A stretch of DNA of 12,219 nucleotides, from positions 1 to 12,219 of IMG/VR virus record IMGVR_UViG_2545824708_000010. The stretch is one strand, 5' to 3'. Below, piece by piece: positions 2,717 to 8,901 of the stretch; within the stretch, counting starts at the first letter, position 1, and each line of letters opens with the position of its first letter. Source of the DNA: a virus. Taxonomy: Duplodnaviria; Heunggongvirae; Uroviricota; Caudoviricetes. The notes under the pieces are model-generated. The model was not told the origin of the DNA, ran no database searches, and worked only from the letters and a program-made list of their open reading frames with translations. The position numbers and the translations under genes are program-made.

Positions 2717-3605
2717 CGTGTTCACCCTCACGAACTTTCAGGTAGGTATTATCGTTAAGCAGGAAATCAAATCCCTTTTTGTGCCAGACGGTTCCGCGTT
2801 GATGGTTTGGGCGCTCTTCGAACATCCATCGGCAATTTTCGCCTACGTAGCTCAAATAATTTCTCCAGTCCTGCATCGTGAACCCATGCCCGTCAAGCTG
2901 GCGGGGTATCACTCCGGCTTTGCGCCAGAACGTTCGGATCTGGTTTTTACGCTTGTCATTCAGTGCGCGGATTCTTGGCGCTTCAGGAAGGATTTCGTGG
3001 TAAGCATCGACAACATCCTGACAGCTAACGGAAGGTTTTTTCTTGTCAGACTTTTTGTCTGCTGCGGTACTCTCTAATACGTCAGTATTAGAGATAATAT
3101 TATTATATTCTTTATCTGTGGTAATTTGCTGGTAATCTGCTGGTACAGTATTGCTTGCAGGCATTGGTATTGCTGGCTTTGAGGTGGTAATTTGCTGGTA
3201 ATCTGCTGGTACAAAATTTGACTGATAATCGTCATATTTCTCTACCGAGAAAACTGAGAATTTACCGTGTGAAACCCAGTCAATCATGCCGAGTTTTTTG
3301 AACTTTCTAAGCAGGTACTGAACGCGATCTGGTTTGAGTCCTGTTTCAAACGCCAGAGAGTTTCTACCGCCAAGTAGCTTCCCTCTGCCTACCAGAATTT
3401 CTCCTGCGTCAGTCATTACATACTCAGGCGTATGCTTTGCTTTGAGGATTAAGTGAACCCACAGATGCGCAGCTTCTGCGTCCTTGTAAAACGGCACATC
3501 CATAATTTTACGGTGCAGCAAGGCATACCCCTTACCGCTGCTTTGATGCGGTTGTTGTAGCCTTCTGGCCTCTCTGGCTTCGGCTAGATTAGATATGTTA
3601 CTCAT
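2706..3605 (-). CDS. O-like replication initiator protein (origin-binding; P22 gene 18-type)
   Basis: 299 aa ORF directly upstream of the helicase with an AGGAG ribosome-binding site. Contains the iteron DNA repeats, which produce the duplicated peptide [10 protein letters not shown]; placement of ori inside the initiator gene is the lambda O/P22 18 arrangement. Confidence 0.8.
3074..3213. repeat. Replication origin: iterons plus adjacent AT-rich region inside the O-like gene
   Basis: Two near-identical roughly 30-bp blocks (3118-3148 and 3183-3213), each holding two GTAATNTGCTG units (3121-3131, 3132-3142, 3188-3198, 3199-3209). Flanked at 3085-3115 by an AT-rich stretch and a 7-bp inverted repeat CTAATAC/GTATTAG at about 3074-3091. 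Confidence 0.75.
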
Positions 3606-3744
3606 GACCTTTCTCCTTCTGCATCAGCTTCACTTTTTCCAACTCAGCCCGGAATCGACCAGGCTGCTTGAAGCTGGACAGGAAGCGATCACGTAGTATG
3701 TGTTTGTGAATTTTGTCCTGGTAAGGACTGAGTTGTTTTGTCAT
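3598..3744 (-). CDS. Hypothetical small protein (48 aa) between cII and the O-like gene
   Basis: Minus-strand ATG at 3744 preceded by AGGAG. Translates [48 protein letters not shown] and its stop overlaps the O start. Below the ORF-track size cutoff, found by hand. Confidence 0.35.
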
Positions 3745-3778
3745 AATTACTCCTGTGGATTGATCCAGTCTTTCTACA

Positions 3779-4057
3779 TCAGGCCTCGAAGAATTTGCCG
3801 TTCTTCGGGGCTTTTTCTTTTGTCAGCATTCTGGCTACTTTCTTAGCCAGTTCCGCCAACTCCTCGTCTTCAACACCCCATTCAAGAACAGCCAGAAGCA
3901 TTCCCATTTTTGGGATGAAGCTGTCTTTCCATCGCGAAATTTGCGATTCATTAATTCCTAACGCGTCAGCAACCTTTCGCTGGCCACGTACAGCAATTCG
4001 ATTCAGGATGTTGCTTGTAATTGCATTCGCTTTCTTGCGAGTACTTGTAAGTTGCAT
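3779..4057 (-). CDS. cII: CII transcriptional activator
   Basis: 92 aa. The segment [42 protein letters not shown] matches my recollection of lambda CII ([42 protein letters not shown]). The RBS/start context TTAAGGAAATACTTACATATG also matches recalled lambda. Confidence 0.9.
3784..3821 (+). terminator. Plus-strand intrinsic terminator inside the 3' end of cII (oop-like antisense RNA terminator)
   Basis: Stem CCTCGAAGAA/TTCTTCGGGG (3784-3793 and 3801-3810, one G-U pair), 7-nt loop, then CTTTTTCTTTT. It is antisense to the cII C-terminal codons, as for lambda oop RNA. Confidence 0.5.
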
Positions 4058-4066
4058 ATGTAAGTA
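4035..4066 (+). promoter_or_regulatory. pRE-like CII-dependent promoter (TTGC-N6-TTGT box plus -10 region)
   Basis: TTGC (4035-4038), 6 nt, TTGT (4045-4048), then 12 nt, then TAAGTA (4061-4066). This is the same spacing as recalled for lambda pRE. A perfect TTGC-N6-TTGC also lies at 4011-4024. Direction is toward cI. Confidence 0.5.
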
Positions 4067-4116
4067 TTTCCTTAACTAATAAGAAGTTATGCGCATCAAC
4101 TTATGCGCGTTGTATT

Positions 4117-4160
4117 CCCGCATTTCGGCGGGAATGAGGACCATGACTGTTAAAGAGCGG
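4117..4160 (-). promoter_or_regulatory. nutR (boxA plus boxB) between cro and cII
   Basis: On the minus strand: boxA CGCTCTTTAACA (plus 4149-4160), then a boxB hairpin UCCCGC-CGAAAU-GCGGGA (plus 4117-4132). The same boxA/boxB recurs on the plus strand downstream of PL. Confidence 0.6.
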
Positions 4161-4165
4161 TGTTA

Positions 4166-4360
4166 CTATTTGTTTTTCTTGTTGCTTGGGAAAGGACGAA
4201 CTTCCTCTCCAATCACACTGCCATCAGGCTTTACCGTAACCATGATGTTACGGCCTGCCAGAATGGCCTTGCTGATAGCGCACTGGATTACACCAAAGTC
4301 ACTGGCTGCTTTAGCCTGTCCATGGATTTTGGCGTAATCGGCAAGTGTCATTCGAATCAT
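4166..4360 (-). CDS. cro: Cro repressor
   Basis: The segment [62 protein letters not shown] closely matches recalled lambda Cro ([59 protein letters not shown]). The ATG at 4360 has a GGAG ribosome-binding site; the ORF-track start at 4366 is a GTG. Confidence 0.9.
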
Positions 4361-4385
4361 ATGCACTCTCCGTTATTAACCATGA

Positions 4386-4466
4386 ACAAAGAATACTACA
4401 GGTATTCAAAGCAATCAATACTCAGGGTATTTTTAGTTTAAGTACCTTAGCTATTAGAATTAAGCT
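4386..4466. promoter_or_regulatory. OR operator region with divergent PR (toward cro) and PRM (toward cI)
   Basis: Two palindromic operators: GAATAC-TACAG-GTATTC (4391-4407) and AATAC-TCAGG-GTATT (4418-4432), with a possible degenerate third near 4437-4454. PR candidate on the minus strand: -35 TTGATT (plus 4413-4418), 17 bp, -10 TATTCT (plus 4390-4395). PRM candidate -10 TAGAAT (4455-4460) ends 6 nt before the cI ATG, implying a leaderless cI mRNA as in lambda. Confidence 0.65.
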
Positions 4467-5183
4467 ATGGAAAATAAAAAATCACTGACGACAGAACAGC
4501 TGGAAGACGCTAAGCGGCTTAAGGCTTTGTATGAGTCAAAAAAGAAAGAATTGGGAATAACCCAATACTCAATCGCTGATGAACTGGGTATCACCCAAGG
4601 AGCGGTAGGGCATTATCTTAATGGCAGAAATGCGCTAAACGTTGAGGTTGCATCTGGTTTTGCACGATTGTTGCAAGTCTCAATTGCTGATTTTAGCCAG
4701 TCAATTGCTGCCAAGGTTGCAGAACAGGCAGAAAGCCTTAAGAGCGATGCCAACGTAAGGTATGCAGGGGAATACAGAGCAGGAAAGAGGTATCCGGTGT
4801 TAAGCAGTATCCAGGCTGGCTCGTGGTGTGAAGCATGCGAACCATACACCATTAAAGACATAGATGTTTGGCTTGAGTCTGACGCGCATATTCAAGGTAA
4901 TGCGTTCTGGCTTAAAGTGGAAGGTGATTCAATGACGGCACCGGTTGGGTTAAGCATTCCAGAGGGAACATTCGTTCTTTTCGATACCGGAAGGGAGGCG
5001 ATCAACGGCAGCTTGGTCATAGCAAAACTTTCTGACTCTAACGAAGCAACATTCAAGAAGCTGATAATCGACGGCGGAAATAAATACCTCAAGGGACTTA
5101 ATCCTGCATGGCCTCTCGTGCCAATCAATGGAAACTGCAAGATTATAGGCGTTGCAATTGAGACAAAACTAAGGCTGGTTTGA
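4467..5183 (+). CDS. cI: CI-type prophage repressor (HTH DNA-binding domain plus S24 LexA-like autopeptidase domain)
   Basis: N-terminus LTTEQLEDAKRLKALYESKKKELGITQYSIADELGITQGAVGHYLNG resembles lambda CI. The C-terminal domain has Ala-Gly (YAGEY), the GDSM serine and the FKKL lysine, and resembles the recalled P22 C2 C-terminus (FWL.V.GDSMTAP.GLSIPEG...NEATFKKL...NGNCKIIGV). Confidence 0.93.
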   Translation: MENKKSLTTEQLEDAKRLKALYESKKKELGITQYSIADELGITQGAVGHYLNGRNALNVEVASGFARLLQVSIADFSQSIAAKVAEQAESLKSDANVRYAGEYRAGKRYPVLSSIQAGSWCEACEPYTIKDIDVWLESDAHIQGNAFWLKVEGDSMTAPVGLSIPEGTFVLFDTGREAINGSLVIAKLSDSNEATFKKLIIDGGNKYLKGLNPAWPLVPINGNCKIIGVAIETKLRLV

Positions 5184-5200
5184 TCACGCAAGGGGCGATT

Positions 5201-5569
5201 ATGGTTGGAACCGCTATAGCAAGCTTTTTTGGGATGTTGGCAATCTCGACAATTTACGGCTTAGCGCATGCTTTTATTGCGAAATCTCTATCAGAAAAAA
5301 TAAGCCAGGCTTGGGCGCATAGATCAGCTCGTTTCATGATTCTAGTGATCATAGCAATACAAGGGATATCTGCATTTATCCTCTATGGTTCAAGCTTATA
5401 CCTGTTGTATCAAGGCGCGACATTTACGCCTTACACCAGTGATTACGGAACTCTATACGATGGTAGTGAAGACATCTCTATGGCTTGGATTGTCTTTGGT
5501 TTATCTATGGCCGTGTCTGTTGTAGCAGATATCATTAAGGTAATTCTCGTCTTAACCTTCGCTGACTAA
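5201..5569 (+). CDS. Small multi-pass membrane protein cotranscribed with cI (rex/sie position)
   Basis: ATG at 5201 with an AGGGG ribosome-binding site, 18 bp after the cI stop. 122 aa with 3-4 hydrophobic segments (AIASFFGMLAISTIYGLAHAFIA, FMILVIIAIQGISAFILYG, MAWIVFGLSMAVSVVADIIKVILVLTF). The ORF-track start at 5180 is a TTG overlapping the cI stop. Confidence 0.6.
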   Translation: MVGTAIASFFGMLAISTIYGLAHAFIAKSLSEKISQAWAHRSARFMILVIIAIQGISAFILYGSSLYLLYQGATFTPYTSDYGTLYDGSEDISMAWIVFGLSMAVSVVADIIKVILVLTFAD

Positions 5570-5655
5570 CCTATAATCCCGGCAGCAATAGCTATCGGGA
5601 TCCACTTCACATATCCCGCATAAAAAGCACTGAACAAGCAGACACCGAAAAAATA

Positions 5656-5745
5656 AATATCCTTTGTATTCATTTGCTTATCATTATTTCATCAAAAATA
5701 AATACCTTGGGTATTTACACAATAAAATACCTACAGTATTCTTTA
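5656..5745 (+). promoter_or_regulatory. OL operators and PL promoter
   Basis: Operators with the same half-sites as OR: AATAC-CTTGG-GTATT (5701-5715), AATAC-CTACA-GTATT (5727-5741), and a degenerate AATAT-CCTTT-GTATT (about 5657-5671). PL candidate: -35 TTTACA (5714-5719), 17 bp, -10 TATTCT (5737-5742). Confidence 0.65.
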
Positions 5746-5788
5746 GCCATCAGCAGGACGCTGGAAGCCAAACGGAACAGATTGGCAG

Positions 5789-5828
5789 GCTCTTTAACAT
5801 TGATGGGATTGTCCCGCCGAAATGCGGG
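5789..5828 (+). promoter_or_regulatory. nutL (boxA plus boxB)
   Basis: GCTCTTTAACA (5789-5799), 13 nt, then CCCGCCGAAATGCGGG (5813-5828). This is the same boxA/boxB RNA sequence as the nutR site on the opposite strand, about 45 nt downstream of the PL -10. Confidence 0.65.
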
Positions 5829-6273
5829 AACTGAGTTTAACCAAACAGGAGGTGCCGTAATGGTGCACTAACGCGGTTAGACCGCAGCCGAAAGGAAATG
5901 CAGCAGTAATGATGCTGCCCTGAGTCGCCATTGAGCGAGCCTGCTTAGCATCGGGTTAGGGTCAATATATTAAAAGTAGCTCCGGTAAAGCAGCGCGAAT
6001 GCCAGACGCGCACCGGTTATCAGCGGCGATGAAGCGGCAGAGACTCAAGGGCATGAGCGCGCTCACTGCGAGAGTGTGAGTCAAAGAGTAGTTGGCTTTG
6101 GGATTGGATGAATGAGCAGGCTGATGCTCGACCAATGTATAAACAGCGCTCATGGCAAGCAGTAACCAATCTGCGCCTCAAGACAGCGTCACTGGTAGTG
6201 CGGGCGCTCTAACCAGTAAGCCGGAATTCAGCACCGGCCATCCAATCACCAAAGTCAATCATCGGAGGTCAAC

Positions 6274-6546
6274 ATGACAGTAGTCATTACATATCTGGCT
6301 GACGATAACGCCAGAAATCGCCGCAGAGCACGCAGACAGGCTCAACGTGAACAGGCAATGCAAGAACAGCGACTGGCGCGAAAAATTGCGCTAAAGCTCT
6401 CTGGTTGCGTCAGAGCAGACAAAGCAGCATCACTCGGAAGCCTTCGCTGCAAGAAGGCAGATGAATGCAGTGGAAGTATTTGCCTGCCAAACGTAGCCAT
6501 TTACGCGGCAGGCTACCGGAAATCAAAACAACTGACGGCGAGGTAA
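6274..6546 (+). CDS. N: N-like transcription antitermination protein
   Basis: 90 aa. First gene downstream of PL/nutL, with a GGAGG ribosome-binding site. N-terminal arginine-rich motif NARNRRRARRQAQREQA, as in lambdoid N proteins. Confidence 0.75.
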   Translation: MTVVITYLADDNARNRRRARRQAQREQAMQEQRLARKIALKLSGCVRADKAASLGSLRCKKADECSGSICLPNVAIYAAGYRKSKQLTAR

Positions 6547-6548
6547 TT

Positions 6549-6941
6549 ATGGGTCAGGAAGAAAAATATGAGCTTAAAAAGCTCATTGAAGAAGACGCCA
6601 TAGAAGAAATTGCAGCATTAACAACAGCTATAAATAATATTAGGTATGCGCTAAATACGCTTATCTCCTCATGCGACAAAAATAGCAGGGAATTTTTGAT
6701 ACTTGGCGCAGCTCTAGGAATAGTTGATGCGGCAACGCTTCACCTAATTACTCATGACGATATTCTTATTGAGCCGTATGAAACATTACTGCTTGTCAGG
6801 CAAAAAATGGCTGATGCCGCAGCAAATGGAGACCTTCAACTTTACATCGACTTAAGGAAAGTATTAAGGCGAATGGTCAGAACTGAAGGAGATATCCCAC
6901 TGAGCGATGCTAAACAAGGCATACAAGCAAAGCTGGAATGA
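6549..6941 (+). CDS. Hypothetical protein (130 aa) in the early-left operon
   Basis: ATG at 6549 with a GAGG ribosome-binding site, starting 3 nt after the N stop. The ORF-track start at 6465 would overlap N. No motif recognised. Confidence 0.6.
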   Translation: MGQEEKYELKKLIEEDAIEEIAALTTAINNIRYALNTLISSCDKNSREFLILGAALGIVDAATLHLITHDDILIEPYETLLLVRQKMADAAANGDLQLYIDLRKVLRRMVRTEGDIPLSDAKQGIQAKLE

Positions 6942-7001
6942 CCATTATCCTGATGAAGTATCGAAAGCACAGTCAGCAATTAGCAAAGCTCTTGGGGAAG
7001 A

Positions 7002-7163
7002 ATGATGAATAAGAAATACATTGTTGAAGTTATAGAGCGAGAAACGAAAGAAGTAATCAAACATTTCGAATTTGATAATTATAGAAAACCTGACCGCGTA
7101 GAAGAAGGATTGTTGCGACAAAGTAATCTCGAAAAATTTGATGTTGTCATGCGATGCGAATAA
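7002..7163 (+). CDS. Hypothetical small protein (53 aa)
   Basis: ATG at 7002 preceded by GGGGAAG. Translates MMNKKYIVEVIERETKEVIKHFEFDNYRKPDRVEEGLLRQSNLEKFDVVMRCE. Below the ORF-track cutoff. Confidence 0.4.
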   Translation: MMNKKYIVEVIERETKEVIKHFEFDNYRKPDRVEEGLLRQSNLEKFDVVMRCE

Positions 7164-7256
7164 GCGCCTATAGCAGATTTACGAGTCTGCTATGTGAGCA
7201 ATGTCGCTCGTAACTAAACAGGAGCCGACTTGTTCTGATTATTGGAAATCTTCTTT

Positions 7257-7281
7257 GCCCTCCAGTGTGAGGGCCTTTTTA
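7257..7281 (+). terminator. Intrinsic terminator (tL-like) in the early-left operon
   Basis: Stem GCCCTC/GAGGGC (7257-7262 and 7269-7274), 6-nt loop, followed by CTTTTTAT. Confidence 0.55.
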
Positions 7282-7346
7282 TATGCATACCAATAACGCT
7301 TCACTCGAGGCGTTTTCGTTATGCAATCAAACAGAAGGAGCATCCT

Positions 7347-7517
7347 ATGCAACAGTTCGCTATTGCAGGGGCGGCATCGGTTCGCCCTTTCAACCCGATT
7401 TTATCGGTACAGCATTCACGAAAAAATATTTTAACCGGAGCAGACTTTAAACAACCAAGAATGAAAAGCTTGCTCGAAAAGCTTTGGGATATTTTGAAAC
7501 AACAAGGCCGTCCATGA
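7347..7517 (+). CDS. cIII: CIII-like small protein (56 aa; candidate FtsH inhibitor that stabilises CII)
   Basis: Strong AAGGAG ribosome-binding site 6 nt upstream. N-terminus MQQFAIAGAA and SLLEKLWDILKQQGRP resemble recalled lambda CIII (MQYAIAGWPVAG...SLLERITRKLRDGWKRLIDILNQPG). Position after N fits. The ORF-track start at 7242 is judged to be upstream read-through. Confidence 0.5.
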   Translation: MQQFAIAGAASVRPFNPILSVQHSRKNILTGADFKQPRMKSLLEKLWDILKQQGRP

Positions 7518-7543
7518 GTTTTACCAATAAGGGGAGCAAGTAA

Positions 7544-8635
7544 ATGGCTATTCAGACTAAAACATTGCAGGTACGCGTCAAAGACCGCCACGCCGCCTTG
7601 TTGCGTCAGATGGCCTTTGAAGTGAACCAAGTTTTTAACTTTATCAATGAAATGACTGCGACTGAATACAGCACTGTCAGCGAATACGGACCAAAACAAA
7701 GAGTTTGGTTAACTGAATTTGACGTAGATAAACGCATTGCTGGTATTCAAAAGGAGCGCGGATACCACATACAAGCAGCTACTTGTCAGGAAATCTCAAA
7801 ACATCACGCTAAAGCGCGTAAACAGTTTAAACGCAGTAAGCTGCGCTGGCGTAAAAGTGGCGGTGCTGGGCGTAGTCTTGGTTGGGTTCCGTTCAAAGGT
7901 GCTCAAGTGAAATGGGTAAACGGCTGCATCAAGTTTGCCGGGCACTATTTCAAAGTGTGGGATAGCTATGGATTAAATGGCTTTAAATTCCGTGCTGGTA
8001 ACTTTGCAGAAGATGCGCGCGGTCGCTGGTATTTCAATGTTGCAGTTGAATACGAATGCGAACCAACTAAAGGCACTGCCGACGTGGGTATCGATCTTGG
8101 TCTGAAAGACATTGCCACCACTTCGGATGGTGAAAAACTTCCTGCTAAACGTTGGTATCGTGAATTAGAAGGCAAATTAAAAATTGCTCAACGTGCCCAT
8201 AATAAAAAACGTGTTAGAGCTATCCACGCAAAAATCAAAAATCGCCGTAAAGATGCACACCATAAGTTTTCTACGGCGCTGGTTAATAAATACGCCGCTA
8301 TTTTTGTAGGCGACGTAAGCAGTAAAAAGTTATCAAAAACAAATTTGGCAAAAAGTATCTACGACGCCGGCTGGTGTCAGCTAAAAAATCAGATTCAGTA
8401 TAAAGCGATTGCGCGGAGTGTGGTTTTTGAGGTCGTAGATGAAGCGTACACCACCCAGACTTGCTCGTGCTGCGGAGCTATTAGCTGCAGTAGTCCGAAG
8501 GGTAGGGTAGGCCTTGGAATAAGAGAATGGATCTGCGTGGAATGTGGTGAACTCCACGACCGCGACGTAAACGCGGCAAAGAACATTCTCGCGGCGGGAC
8601 ATCGCCGTCTCGAAGGAGGAATCCACGCCCTTTAG
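7544..8635 (+). CDS. tnpB: TnpB-family protein (IS200/IS605 OrfB-type RNA-guided nuclease fold)
   Basis: 363 aa with a GGGGAG ribosome-binding site. RuvC-I VGIDLGLKDIATTSDG; an acidic residue in IFVGDVSS at the RuvC-II position; C4 zinc finger CSCCG...CVECG; RuvC-III HDRDVNAAKNI. Confidence 0.9.
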   Translation: MAIQTKTLQVRVKDRHAALLRQMAFEVNQVFNFINEMTATEYSTVSEYGPKQRVWLTEFDVDKRIAGIQKERGYHIQAATCQEISKHHAKARKQFKRSKLRWRKSGGAGRSLGWVPFKGAQVKWVNGCIKFAGHYFKVWDSYGLNGFKFRAGNFAEDARGRWYFNVAVEYECEPTKGTADVGIDLGLKDIATTSDGEKLPAKRWYRELEGKLKIAQRAHNKKRVRAIHAKIKNRRKDAHHKFSTALVNKYAAIFVGDVSSKKLSKTNLAKSIYDAGWCQLKNQIQYKAIARSVVFEVVDEAYTTQTCSCCGAISCSSPKGRVGLGIREWICVECGELHDRDVNAAKNILAAGHRRLEGGIHAL

Positions 8636-8643
8636 GGCGTGGA
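8622..8643 (+). other. Perfect hairpin at the tnpB stop codon (candidate right-end or guide-RNA scaffold element)
   Basis: TCCACGCCC-TTTA-GGGCGTGGA, a 9-bp perfect stem around a 4-nt loop that contains the TAG stop. Confidence 0.5.
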
Positions 8644-8901
8644 GGATGTCAAAGATAACTGGTCAGACAAAGAATTCATTCGTCAGATGAAAGAATTAAT
8701 CGGTAACGAAGGAGATATGCATGTCACTTGCAACCACAGTGAAGGAGAGCAAGTTACAGAGACGCATGTACACGCAGAAAGCTCTCTGGTATCGCCATAA
8801 TGGCGACCGCGAAGGAATGCGGGTATGCCTTAATTTGTCCCGAGTCGAAGTATTAAATCAGCGTTATTTCCTTGGGCCATGTCCATTCTGAGAACAATCA
8901 T

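Follow-up and report, generated by a model that had tools for sequence, protein, structure and literature searches.

The early-left region of the prophage considered here carries two small genes, encoding proteins of 130 and 53 amino acids (ORF130 and ORF53), between the antitermination gene N and a terminator. Together they occupy positions 6549-7163 of the window, by which we mean the whole 12,219-nucleotide stretch of DNA that was analysed. The question raised by this arrangement is whether the two genes belong together as a functional unit or whether their proximity has some other origin. The first-pass annotation had described them as a discrete, N-dependent cassette, and it considered a small toxin/antitoxin-like or inhibitor pair possible. 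Analysis of the locus confirmed that both genes are present where described and that purifying selection acts on each of them. The relationship between them, their expression and the sequence that separates them required a different interpretation.

The window corresponds to the immunity and early-left region of a lambdoid E. coli prophage of the HK620/P22 type. Alignment with HK620 gave 98.6% DNA identity for positions 2937-5831 and approximately 99% for the N region. Unless stated otherwise, the features described below lie on the plus strand. The gene cI (4467-5183) and an hkaS-like membrane ORF (5180-5569) are followed by the pL promoter with its OL operators (5714-5749) and by nutL with boxA and boxB (5788-5829). 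Both of these sites were placed by homology to the HK620 annotation (pL at 2778-2813 and nutL at 2852-2893 of L001, with a window offset of 2936), and a promoter-like match was detected at 5714-5742. The early-left transcript starts at pL and runs through N, ORF130 and ORF53 in that order. N (6274-6546, with its TAA stop at 6544-6546) encodes a 90-aa protein of the HK620/H-19B type that is matched by Pfam N_peptide (E 1.1e-15) and by PHROG 271. On the far side of the two genes lies a cIII-like gene of 56 aa (7347-7517; PHROG 550 'CIII', E 1e-22). Beyond the cIII-like gene we also observed a TnpB-only insertion (tnpB 7544-8635), followed by Erf, an SSB-like gene and Abc2.

The terminator that had been proposed at 7257-7281 was recovered as a hairpin at 7257-7274 followed by a U-run extending to about 7281, and it is accompanied by a second hairpin at 7295-7314 (terminator feature 7295-7320). 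The folding z-score for 7240-7330 was -4.4, and both hairpins align with the HK620 stretch annotated as tL2A and tL2B. A scan of the plus strand from 5500 to 7257, an interval that includes pL at approximately 5714, detected no intrinsic terminator-like site; the hairpin at 7257 is the first intrinsic terminator after pL. The HK620 stretch with the annotated tL1, which is located inside hkaP, is missing from the window. Because no intrinsic terminator separates pL from 7257, ORF130 and ORF53 are predicted to share the immediate-early transcript of N and not to need N for their expression, a prediction that applies to intrinsic and not to Rho-dependent terminators, the former being what the scan covered. 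Both genes stand before, not after, the first terminators, and the N dependence originally attributed to them is doubtful. N should first be needed at the cIII-like gene, the first one past the terminators, and then for the genes beyond it. The possibility that an internal promoter serves expression in the lysogen was also considered and set aside; a single weak match was present at 6696-6724, and the matches were fewer than in shuffled sequence.

ORF130 extends from 6549 to 6941. Its ATG at 6549 is separated from the N stop by 2 nucleotides, not by the 3 that had been counted previously, and its Shine-Dalgarno sequence, GAGG, is located within the last codons of N. Comparison of ORF130 with the hkaQ product of HK620 (AAK28865.1, 120 aa, annotated 'unknown') demonstrated 96-98% protein identity over residues 1-118 and 98.8% DNA identity up to position 6903. 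The PHROG 7374 profile matched ORF130 with an E value of 1e-78 (residues 1-120 against profile positions 1-120 of 120). Judged by these sequence matches, ORF130 is the hkaQ gene of phage HK620, a member of PHROG 7374 whose function is unannotated. Measured against the 58%-identical gene of the homologue P0003, ORF130 is under purifying selection (dN 0.35, dS 1.59, dN/dS 0.22). The family to which it belongs is very narrow. A word-index search of 5.8 billion proteins returned five proteins, an exhaustive search of 1.84 billion cluster representatives with a profile yielded only three genuine clusters of hkaQ (the E. coli type, P0003 at 58% identity and a distant 93-aa protein, P0020), and no hkaQ relative turned up when one genome per species was scanned. 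Two further candidates, the plant repeat protein P0019 and the Calx-beta-like repeat protein P0022, were rejected as relatives, their scores being sums of short repeated motifs. Pathogenic E. coli also carry the gene, in Stx1-converting prophages. Some records, and only some, use an alternative gene model in which ORF130 carries a 28-codon upstream extension. The idea that a programmed -1 frameshift leads from N into the ORF130 frame in its upstream-extended form (6465-6941) was considered and rejected; no canonical slippery heptamer was seen in the overlap.

Although residues 1-118 of ORF130 correspond to hkaQ, the resemblance to HK620 breaks off at 6903, short of the native hkaQ stop by two codons. 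From this point the sequence 6904-7005, in another frame than ORF130, translates as AMLNKAYKQSWNDHYPDEVSKAQSAISKALGEE followed by a stop codon. These are the final 33 codons of a gene of 96-98 aa that is intact in L015, L016 and L021 and that is named 'XkdD/Y8K6 family phage-associated protein' in RefSeq (PHROG 1273). The end of homology at 6903 and the out-of-frame Y8K6 C-terminus together indicate that ORF130 consists of hkaQ codons 1-118 (6549-6903) joined to a junk tail, and that the spacer behind it is a gene remnant. The tail, SDAKQGIQAKLE, comprises 12 out-of-frame residues after hkaQ codon 118 (6904-6941, 12 codons and a stop). The 60-nt gap between ORF130 and ORF53 noted previously therefore stands as to its length, while its description as intergenic does not, being the 3' remnant of the Y8K6-family gene. 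The junction falls at a CCCTGA microhomology, where hkaQ reads CCCCCTGA followed by CAAAG and Y8K6 reads GCCCTGA followed by AAGCGATGC. The same junction was found in all eight IMG/VR fusion loci, indicating that the deletion arose once. An ancestor-like order, N, hkaQ, convergent hkaP, a 156-aa ORF, Y8K6 and ORF53, is present in L056, L113 and L115.

These observations point to one illegitimate deletion at CCCTGA, which removed the DNA from hkaQ codon 118 to approximately codon 64 of a Y8K6/XkdD-family gene. The corresponding interval of relatives contains the convergent hkaP ('putative superinfection exclusion protein' in the HK620 annotation) and other cargo. As a result of this event, hkaQ gained its 12-residue out-of-frame tail, the last 33 Y8K6 codons persisted as the apparent 60-nt spacer, and ORF53, normally a distal gene overlapping the stop of a full-length Y8K6 gene, came to adjoin hkaQ. 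The chimeric 130-aa form is already represented in RefSeq (WP_072658121.1). Among the fusion loci the tail varies by S119N, by L129Q and by a premature stop in L090; the tail is unconstrained.

ORF53 (7002-7163) begins 60 nt after ORF130 and has a second in-frame ATG at 7005, giving a product of 52 or 53 aa. The window contains 89 ORFs of at least 40 aa, and a length of 53 codons alone is within chance. The PHROG 6949 profile matched ORF53 with an E value of 9.6e-40 (residues 2-53 against profile positions 1-52 of 52), and the predicted protein shares 98% identity with mEp043_045 and mEp213_048, both hypothetical proteins (52-53 aa). Homologues with 80-98% identity were found in prophages of Escherichia, Salmonella, Klebsiella, Citrobacter and Atlantibacter. 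Comparison with the Atlantibacter homologue gave 22.5 synonymous and 7.5 non-synonymous differences, and dN/dS relative to the L020 copy was approximately 0.1. An antisense ORF of 58 codons at 6945-7121 was treated as spurious in view of the strong purifying selection on the sense frame. Since both ORF130 and ORF53 are under purifying selection, both are real genes. Both are also already catalogued ORFans, as hkaQ of HK620 and as the hypothetical proteins of mEp043 and mEp213.

In an effort to assign a function to either product, sequence searches of Pfam, NCBIfam, PADLOC and the PDB were performed and returned no match for ORF130 or ORF53, in agreement with the earlier remark that neither has a recognisable motif. 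NCBIfam likewise holds no family that matches the 148-aa gene model of ORF130. Weak matches to FlaG, acyl carrier protein and Tim29 were dismissed as noise. Fold searches of the two proteins were non-specific, and a BFVD fold search gave nothing at E ≤ 0.001. The profile and structure searches that the first-pass annotation had recommended for both proteins did not produce a functional lead, and a literature search found no functional study of hkaQ, the ORF53 family or Y8K6. The AF2 model of ORF130 consists entirely of helices, four or five in number, and its confidence is moderate (pLDDT 68.7, pTM 0.43). The protein is acidic (pI 4.9), and its most conserved motifs are AIxNIRYxL and IVDAATLHLIxHDDxLxEPY. 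Its helix 49-67 is hydrophobic on the Kyte-Doolittle scale (2.03), while the Hessa value of +2.8 is unfavourable for membrane insertion, and a transmembrane segment was judged unlikely; the corresponding helix of the distant homologue P0020 scores +4.9 on the Hessa scale. ORF53 is hydrophilic, and its AF2 model adopts a beta-beta-alpha-beta arrangement (pLDDT 78). Enzymatic and DNA-binding signatures are absent from both proteins. Their position, size and timing tentatively suggest, as the likeliest role, that the products may be small early binders of host or rival-phage proteins. Each would bind such a protein early in infection, which would place it in the same host-takeover or counter-defence class as Ral.

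If the two genes formed a unit, they would be expected to travel together. Among the 234 complete E. coli genomes that contain any part of 6549-7163, only 10 contain the whole stretch with ORF130 and ORF53 together. HK620 and most relatives carry hkaQ without ORF53; mEp043 and most relatives carry ORF53 without hkaQ. The sequence downstream of hkaQ is variable, in that the convergent hkaP, a 156-aa ORF, Ral or a Y8K6-type gene may come next, or cIII may follow at once. Manual counting of the 61 IMG/VR loci with ORF53 showed a full-length Y8K6-type gene directly upstream in most of them, and the hkaQ fusion upstream in 6. The two genes therefore mostly occur apart, their adjacency here stems from one deletion, and the description of the locus as a discrete cassette does not hold. 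Our preferred reading, to which we assign a probability of roughly 0.55, is that ORF130 and ORF53 are real and mutually independent early-left accessory genes, part of the mosaic cargo of lambdoid phages, which one old deletion has adjoined.

The usual neighbourhood of ORF53 raises the alternative that its natural partner is the Y8K6-family gene and that ORF53 is the small member of that pair (a regulator, adaptor or antidote), orphaned in the window. In the usual context the ORF53 ATG overlaps the Y8K6-type stop (ATGA), and this coupled order is that of most of the 61 loci. Divergent genes upstream of ORF53 retain a C-terminal module, A(R/Q)xAIxKA(L/I)GEE directly before the stop, and deletion of the partner seems to have been followed by drift of ORF53. 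In the window the usual PHROG 6949 context is absent, the upstream gene being reduced to its last 33 codons and stop (6904-7005). Those same C-terminal codons, however, constitute the ORF53 Shine-Dalgarno, which in the window is contained in the remnant's final codons, GGGGAAGAA, and they may persist merely as its ribosome-binding site. Elsewhere Y8K6-type genes are followed by a different 62-aa gene or by none (L016, L100, L101, L122), an extra ORF separates the two genes in L080 and L081, and the Y8K6 family is itself of unassigned function. On balance, we consider a pairing of this kind unlikely.

A further possibility is that hkaQ is an N-linked factor, made stoichiometrically with N through translational coupling, that modulates N and not host defences. 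It might, for example, shield N from Lon, or tune antitermination or N autoregulation. Exactly 2 nt separate N from hkaQ in 39 of the 41 IMG/VR loci (N was not detected in L106, and hkaQ aligned only in part in L123). The spacing is likewise 2 nt in P0003, where the N-terminal half of N is different, and the P0020 homologue lies 37 nt behind a protein of 123 aa that has an arginine-rich N-like motif. The GAGG in the last codons of N is conserved across all three hkaQ lineages, and hkaQ moves together with the last 22 N codons as a module among different N alleles. Conversely, the same N allele and the same N C-terminus are found in many phages that lack hkaQ (mEp213, JEP4, CUS-3, L043, L044 and L047), from which it follows that N can do without it. 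The close linkage could also simply reflect the absence of a recombination boundary within a 2-nt gap, and hkaQ has no similarity to known N-interacting proteins. Homologues of hkaQ are called 'antitermination N domain protein' in RefSeq, and this name is without model support, as Pfam N_peptide (PF25694) matches N and not ORF130. A role for hkaQ in modulating N thus appears rather improbable. We take a similarly sceptical view of a combined proposal in which hkaQ is an unrecognised immediate-early partner of N, tuning antitermination or N stability, or else an early neutraliser of defence, and in which Y8K6 and ORF53 separately make up a two-protein module.

The deletion could also have crippled the locus, leaving ORF130 as a truncated chimera and ORF53 without its coupled partner, with neither gene adding to fitness. 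The variable tail of ORF130, with its premature stop in L090, is compatible with such decay, as is a 1-nt deletion within the Y8K6 remnant of L086. ORF53 points in the same direction. Among the fusion loci it is frameshifted in L088, altered by A30P in the window and L084, altered by D47Y in L086 and replaced by a 62-aa gene in L090; of the seven fusion loci with an ORF53, a single one retains the consensus protein. The A30P change is lineage-specific and was found in only L022 and L023 among the 61 loci. As a hint drawn from few and phylogenetically related copies, ORF53 appears to be less constrained, and drifting, in the deletion lineage. Against a general decay of the locus, codons 1-118 of hkaQ are intact and 97-100% conserved in all eight fusion loci, just 2 of the 120 native residues have been replaced, ORF53 retains its own Shine-Dalgarno inside the remnant, and the fusion arrangement has been kept in 10 complete E. 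coli genomes. The conserved core suggests that hkaQ has probably retained its function, and we doubt that the locus is simply a relic.

That ORF130 and ORF53, being small, adjacent and co-directional between N and a terminator, constitute a two-gene toxin/antitoxin-like or inhibitor cassette, as initially proposed, is very improbable in view of their rare co-presence (10 of 234 genomes), the other usual neighbours of each gene, the single deletion to which their adjacency traces, the failure of toxin, antitoxin and defence models to match either ORF, and a fusion lineage that shows decay of ORF53 and not co-maintenance.

Returning to the reading of two independent accessory genes, the apparent two-gene cassette is best described as a deletion scar uniting two unrelated, catalogued ORFans. 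Toxin/antitoxin experiments on the ORF130/ORF53 pair are accordingly unwarranted, and the sensible units of study are hkaQ alone and Y8K6 together with ORF53. The one observation that experiments might usefully take up is that hkaQ, in its immediate-early position, is linked to N by a fixed gap of 2 nt. A defined role for hkaQ, if true, would add an immediate-early function co-expressed with N to the lambdoid pL operon.

Comparison with known systems serves to place both genes. Type II toxin-antitoxin modules resemble the ORF130/ORF53 arrangement in consisting of two small adjacent genes on one transcript. Unlike such modules, ORF130 and ORF53 lack conserved co-occurrence and toxin-antitoxin homology, are separated by a 60-nt relic and owe their adjacency to a deletion. 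The slot between N and cIII is hypervariable, and relatives have Ral, SieB-type or hkaP genes there; the suggestion that this N-proximal position carries early host-takeover and anti-defence genes is borne out by the Ral and SieB-type genes found there in sister prophages. Ral of lambda and P22 (PF11058) is, like the products of ORF130 and ORF53, a small early protein of the pL operon encoded between N and cIII, and in sister prophages Ral sits exactly at the site of the window's deletion. It differs in having no sequence likeness to either protein; Pfam Ral matches neither ORF130 nor ORF53, and a tblastn search with lambda Ral gave matches in other loci only. Lambda Ral lies downstream of tL1, whereas ORF130 and ORF53 precede the first terminator. 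SieB and the HK620 hkaP share with ORF130 and ORF53 the hypervariable slot next to N. Their genes are convergent to N, whereas ORF130 and ORF53 are co-directional with it and lack a convincing membrane segment, Pfam SieB (PF14163) matches neither of them, and the HK620 alignment placed no hkaP homologue in the window.

The closest counterparts are the catalogued homologues themselves. The genes for the hypothetical proteins mEp043_045 and mEp213_048 occupy the same pL-operon slot as ORF53, with the same terminator-containing boundary sequence downstream. In mEp043 and mEp213 the Y8K6-type gene in front is still full-length (98 aa) and the ORF53 homologue overlaps its stop, whereas the window has a remnant of that gene and the A30P change. 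The hkaQ gene of HK620, like ORF130, begins 2 nt after an almost identical N and uses the same Shine-Dalgarno. It is followed in HK620 by the convergent hkaP and the annotated tL1, both deleted in the window, where a 12-residue out-of-frame tail replaces the last 2 native residues of hkaQ.

RefSeq and nr name the hkaQ homologues (window 6465-6941; RefSeq WP_072658121.1 and its cluster members) as 'antitermination N domain proteins'. Comparison of the hkaQ homologues with the Pfam N_peptide and the NCBIfam models returned no match. Some of their gene models use an upstream ATG start, giving products of 148 or 158 aa, and the added codons lie over the 3'-terminal part of N in another reading frame. 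The N-domain name looks like an annotation artefact.

Two N genes that differ in type are present in phage mEp213 (1675-3432 of its locus), and between them lie a module of the Y8K6-family gene and ORF53 as well as a nutL-like leader. This flanking arrangement indicates that part of the mEp213 pL operon is arranged in tandem. In the lineage of P0003, an hkaQ homologue 58% identical to that of the window, the homologue is followed by a convergent 94-aa gene (loci L009-L012; 5430-5714 in L009) with a weak Pfam match to GhoS (type V antitoxin-like), and a second N gene, of the PF26859 type, is located further downstream. The leader between nutL and N (5831-6249) spans approximately 418 nt in the window versus 81 nt in HK620; the part at 5809-6102 is shared with mEp213 and the part at 6082-6259 with the E. 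coli ExPEC XM prophage.

The 5'-terminal part of ORF130 contains an inverted repeat of 8 bp without mismatch (ATGAGCTT AAA AAGCTCAT; 6568-6586). On the minus strand the repeat is followed by a T-run and scores as a weak terminator. It might halt transcripts that arrive from a gene in convergent orientation, hkaP being an example in relatives; alternatively, the repeat may have arisen by chance.

Downstream of the cIII-like gene, a TnpB-only IS200/IS605-type element is inserted at 7525-8652, with tnpB itself at 7544-8635 (Pfam OrfB_IS605 and Cas12f1-like TNB) and TTAC directly 5' of the insertion point. Two compared loci (L004 and L005) represent empty sites without the element, reading ...CCATGAGTTTTAC|GGATAACTGG. 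The insertion interrupts a small ORF between MSFT and DNWSDEEF..., which overlaps the stop of the cIII-like gene. E. coli strain A2 and IMG/VR locus L023 carry the identical insertion. Rfam matches below threshold at 8527-8664, to HgcC (full-model match; 26.9 bits, E 0.0018) and sot0042, families that overlap tnpB 3' ends, together suggest an omega-RNA at the right end of the element.

Directly 3' of cI, an hkaS-like ORF of 129 aa (5180-5569; PHROG 6534, function unknown) contains strongly hydrophobic segments. Its product is a candidate for an exclusion or defence function encoded by the prophage; in other lambdoid phages, the lysogen-expressed slot after cI houses rexAB and further prophage defence genes.
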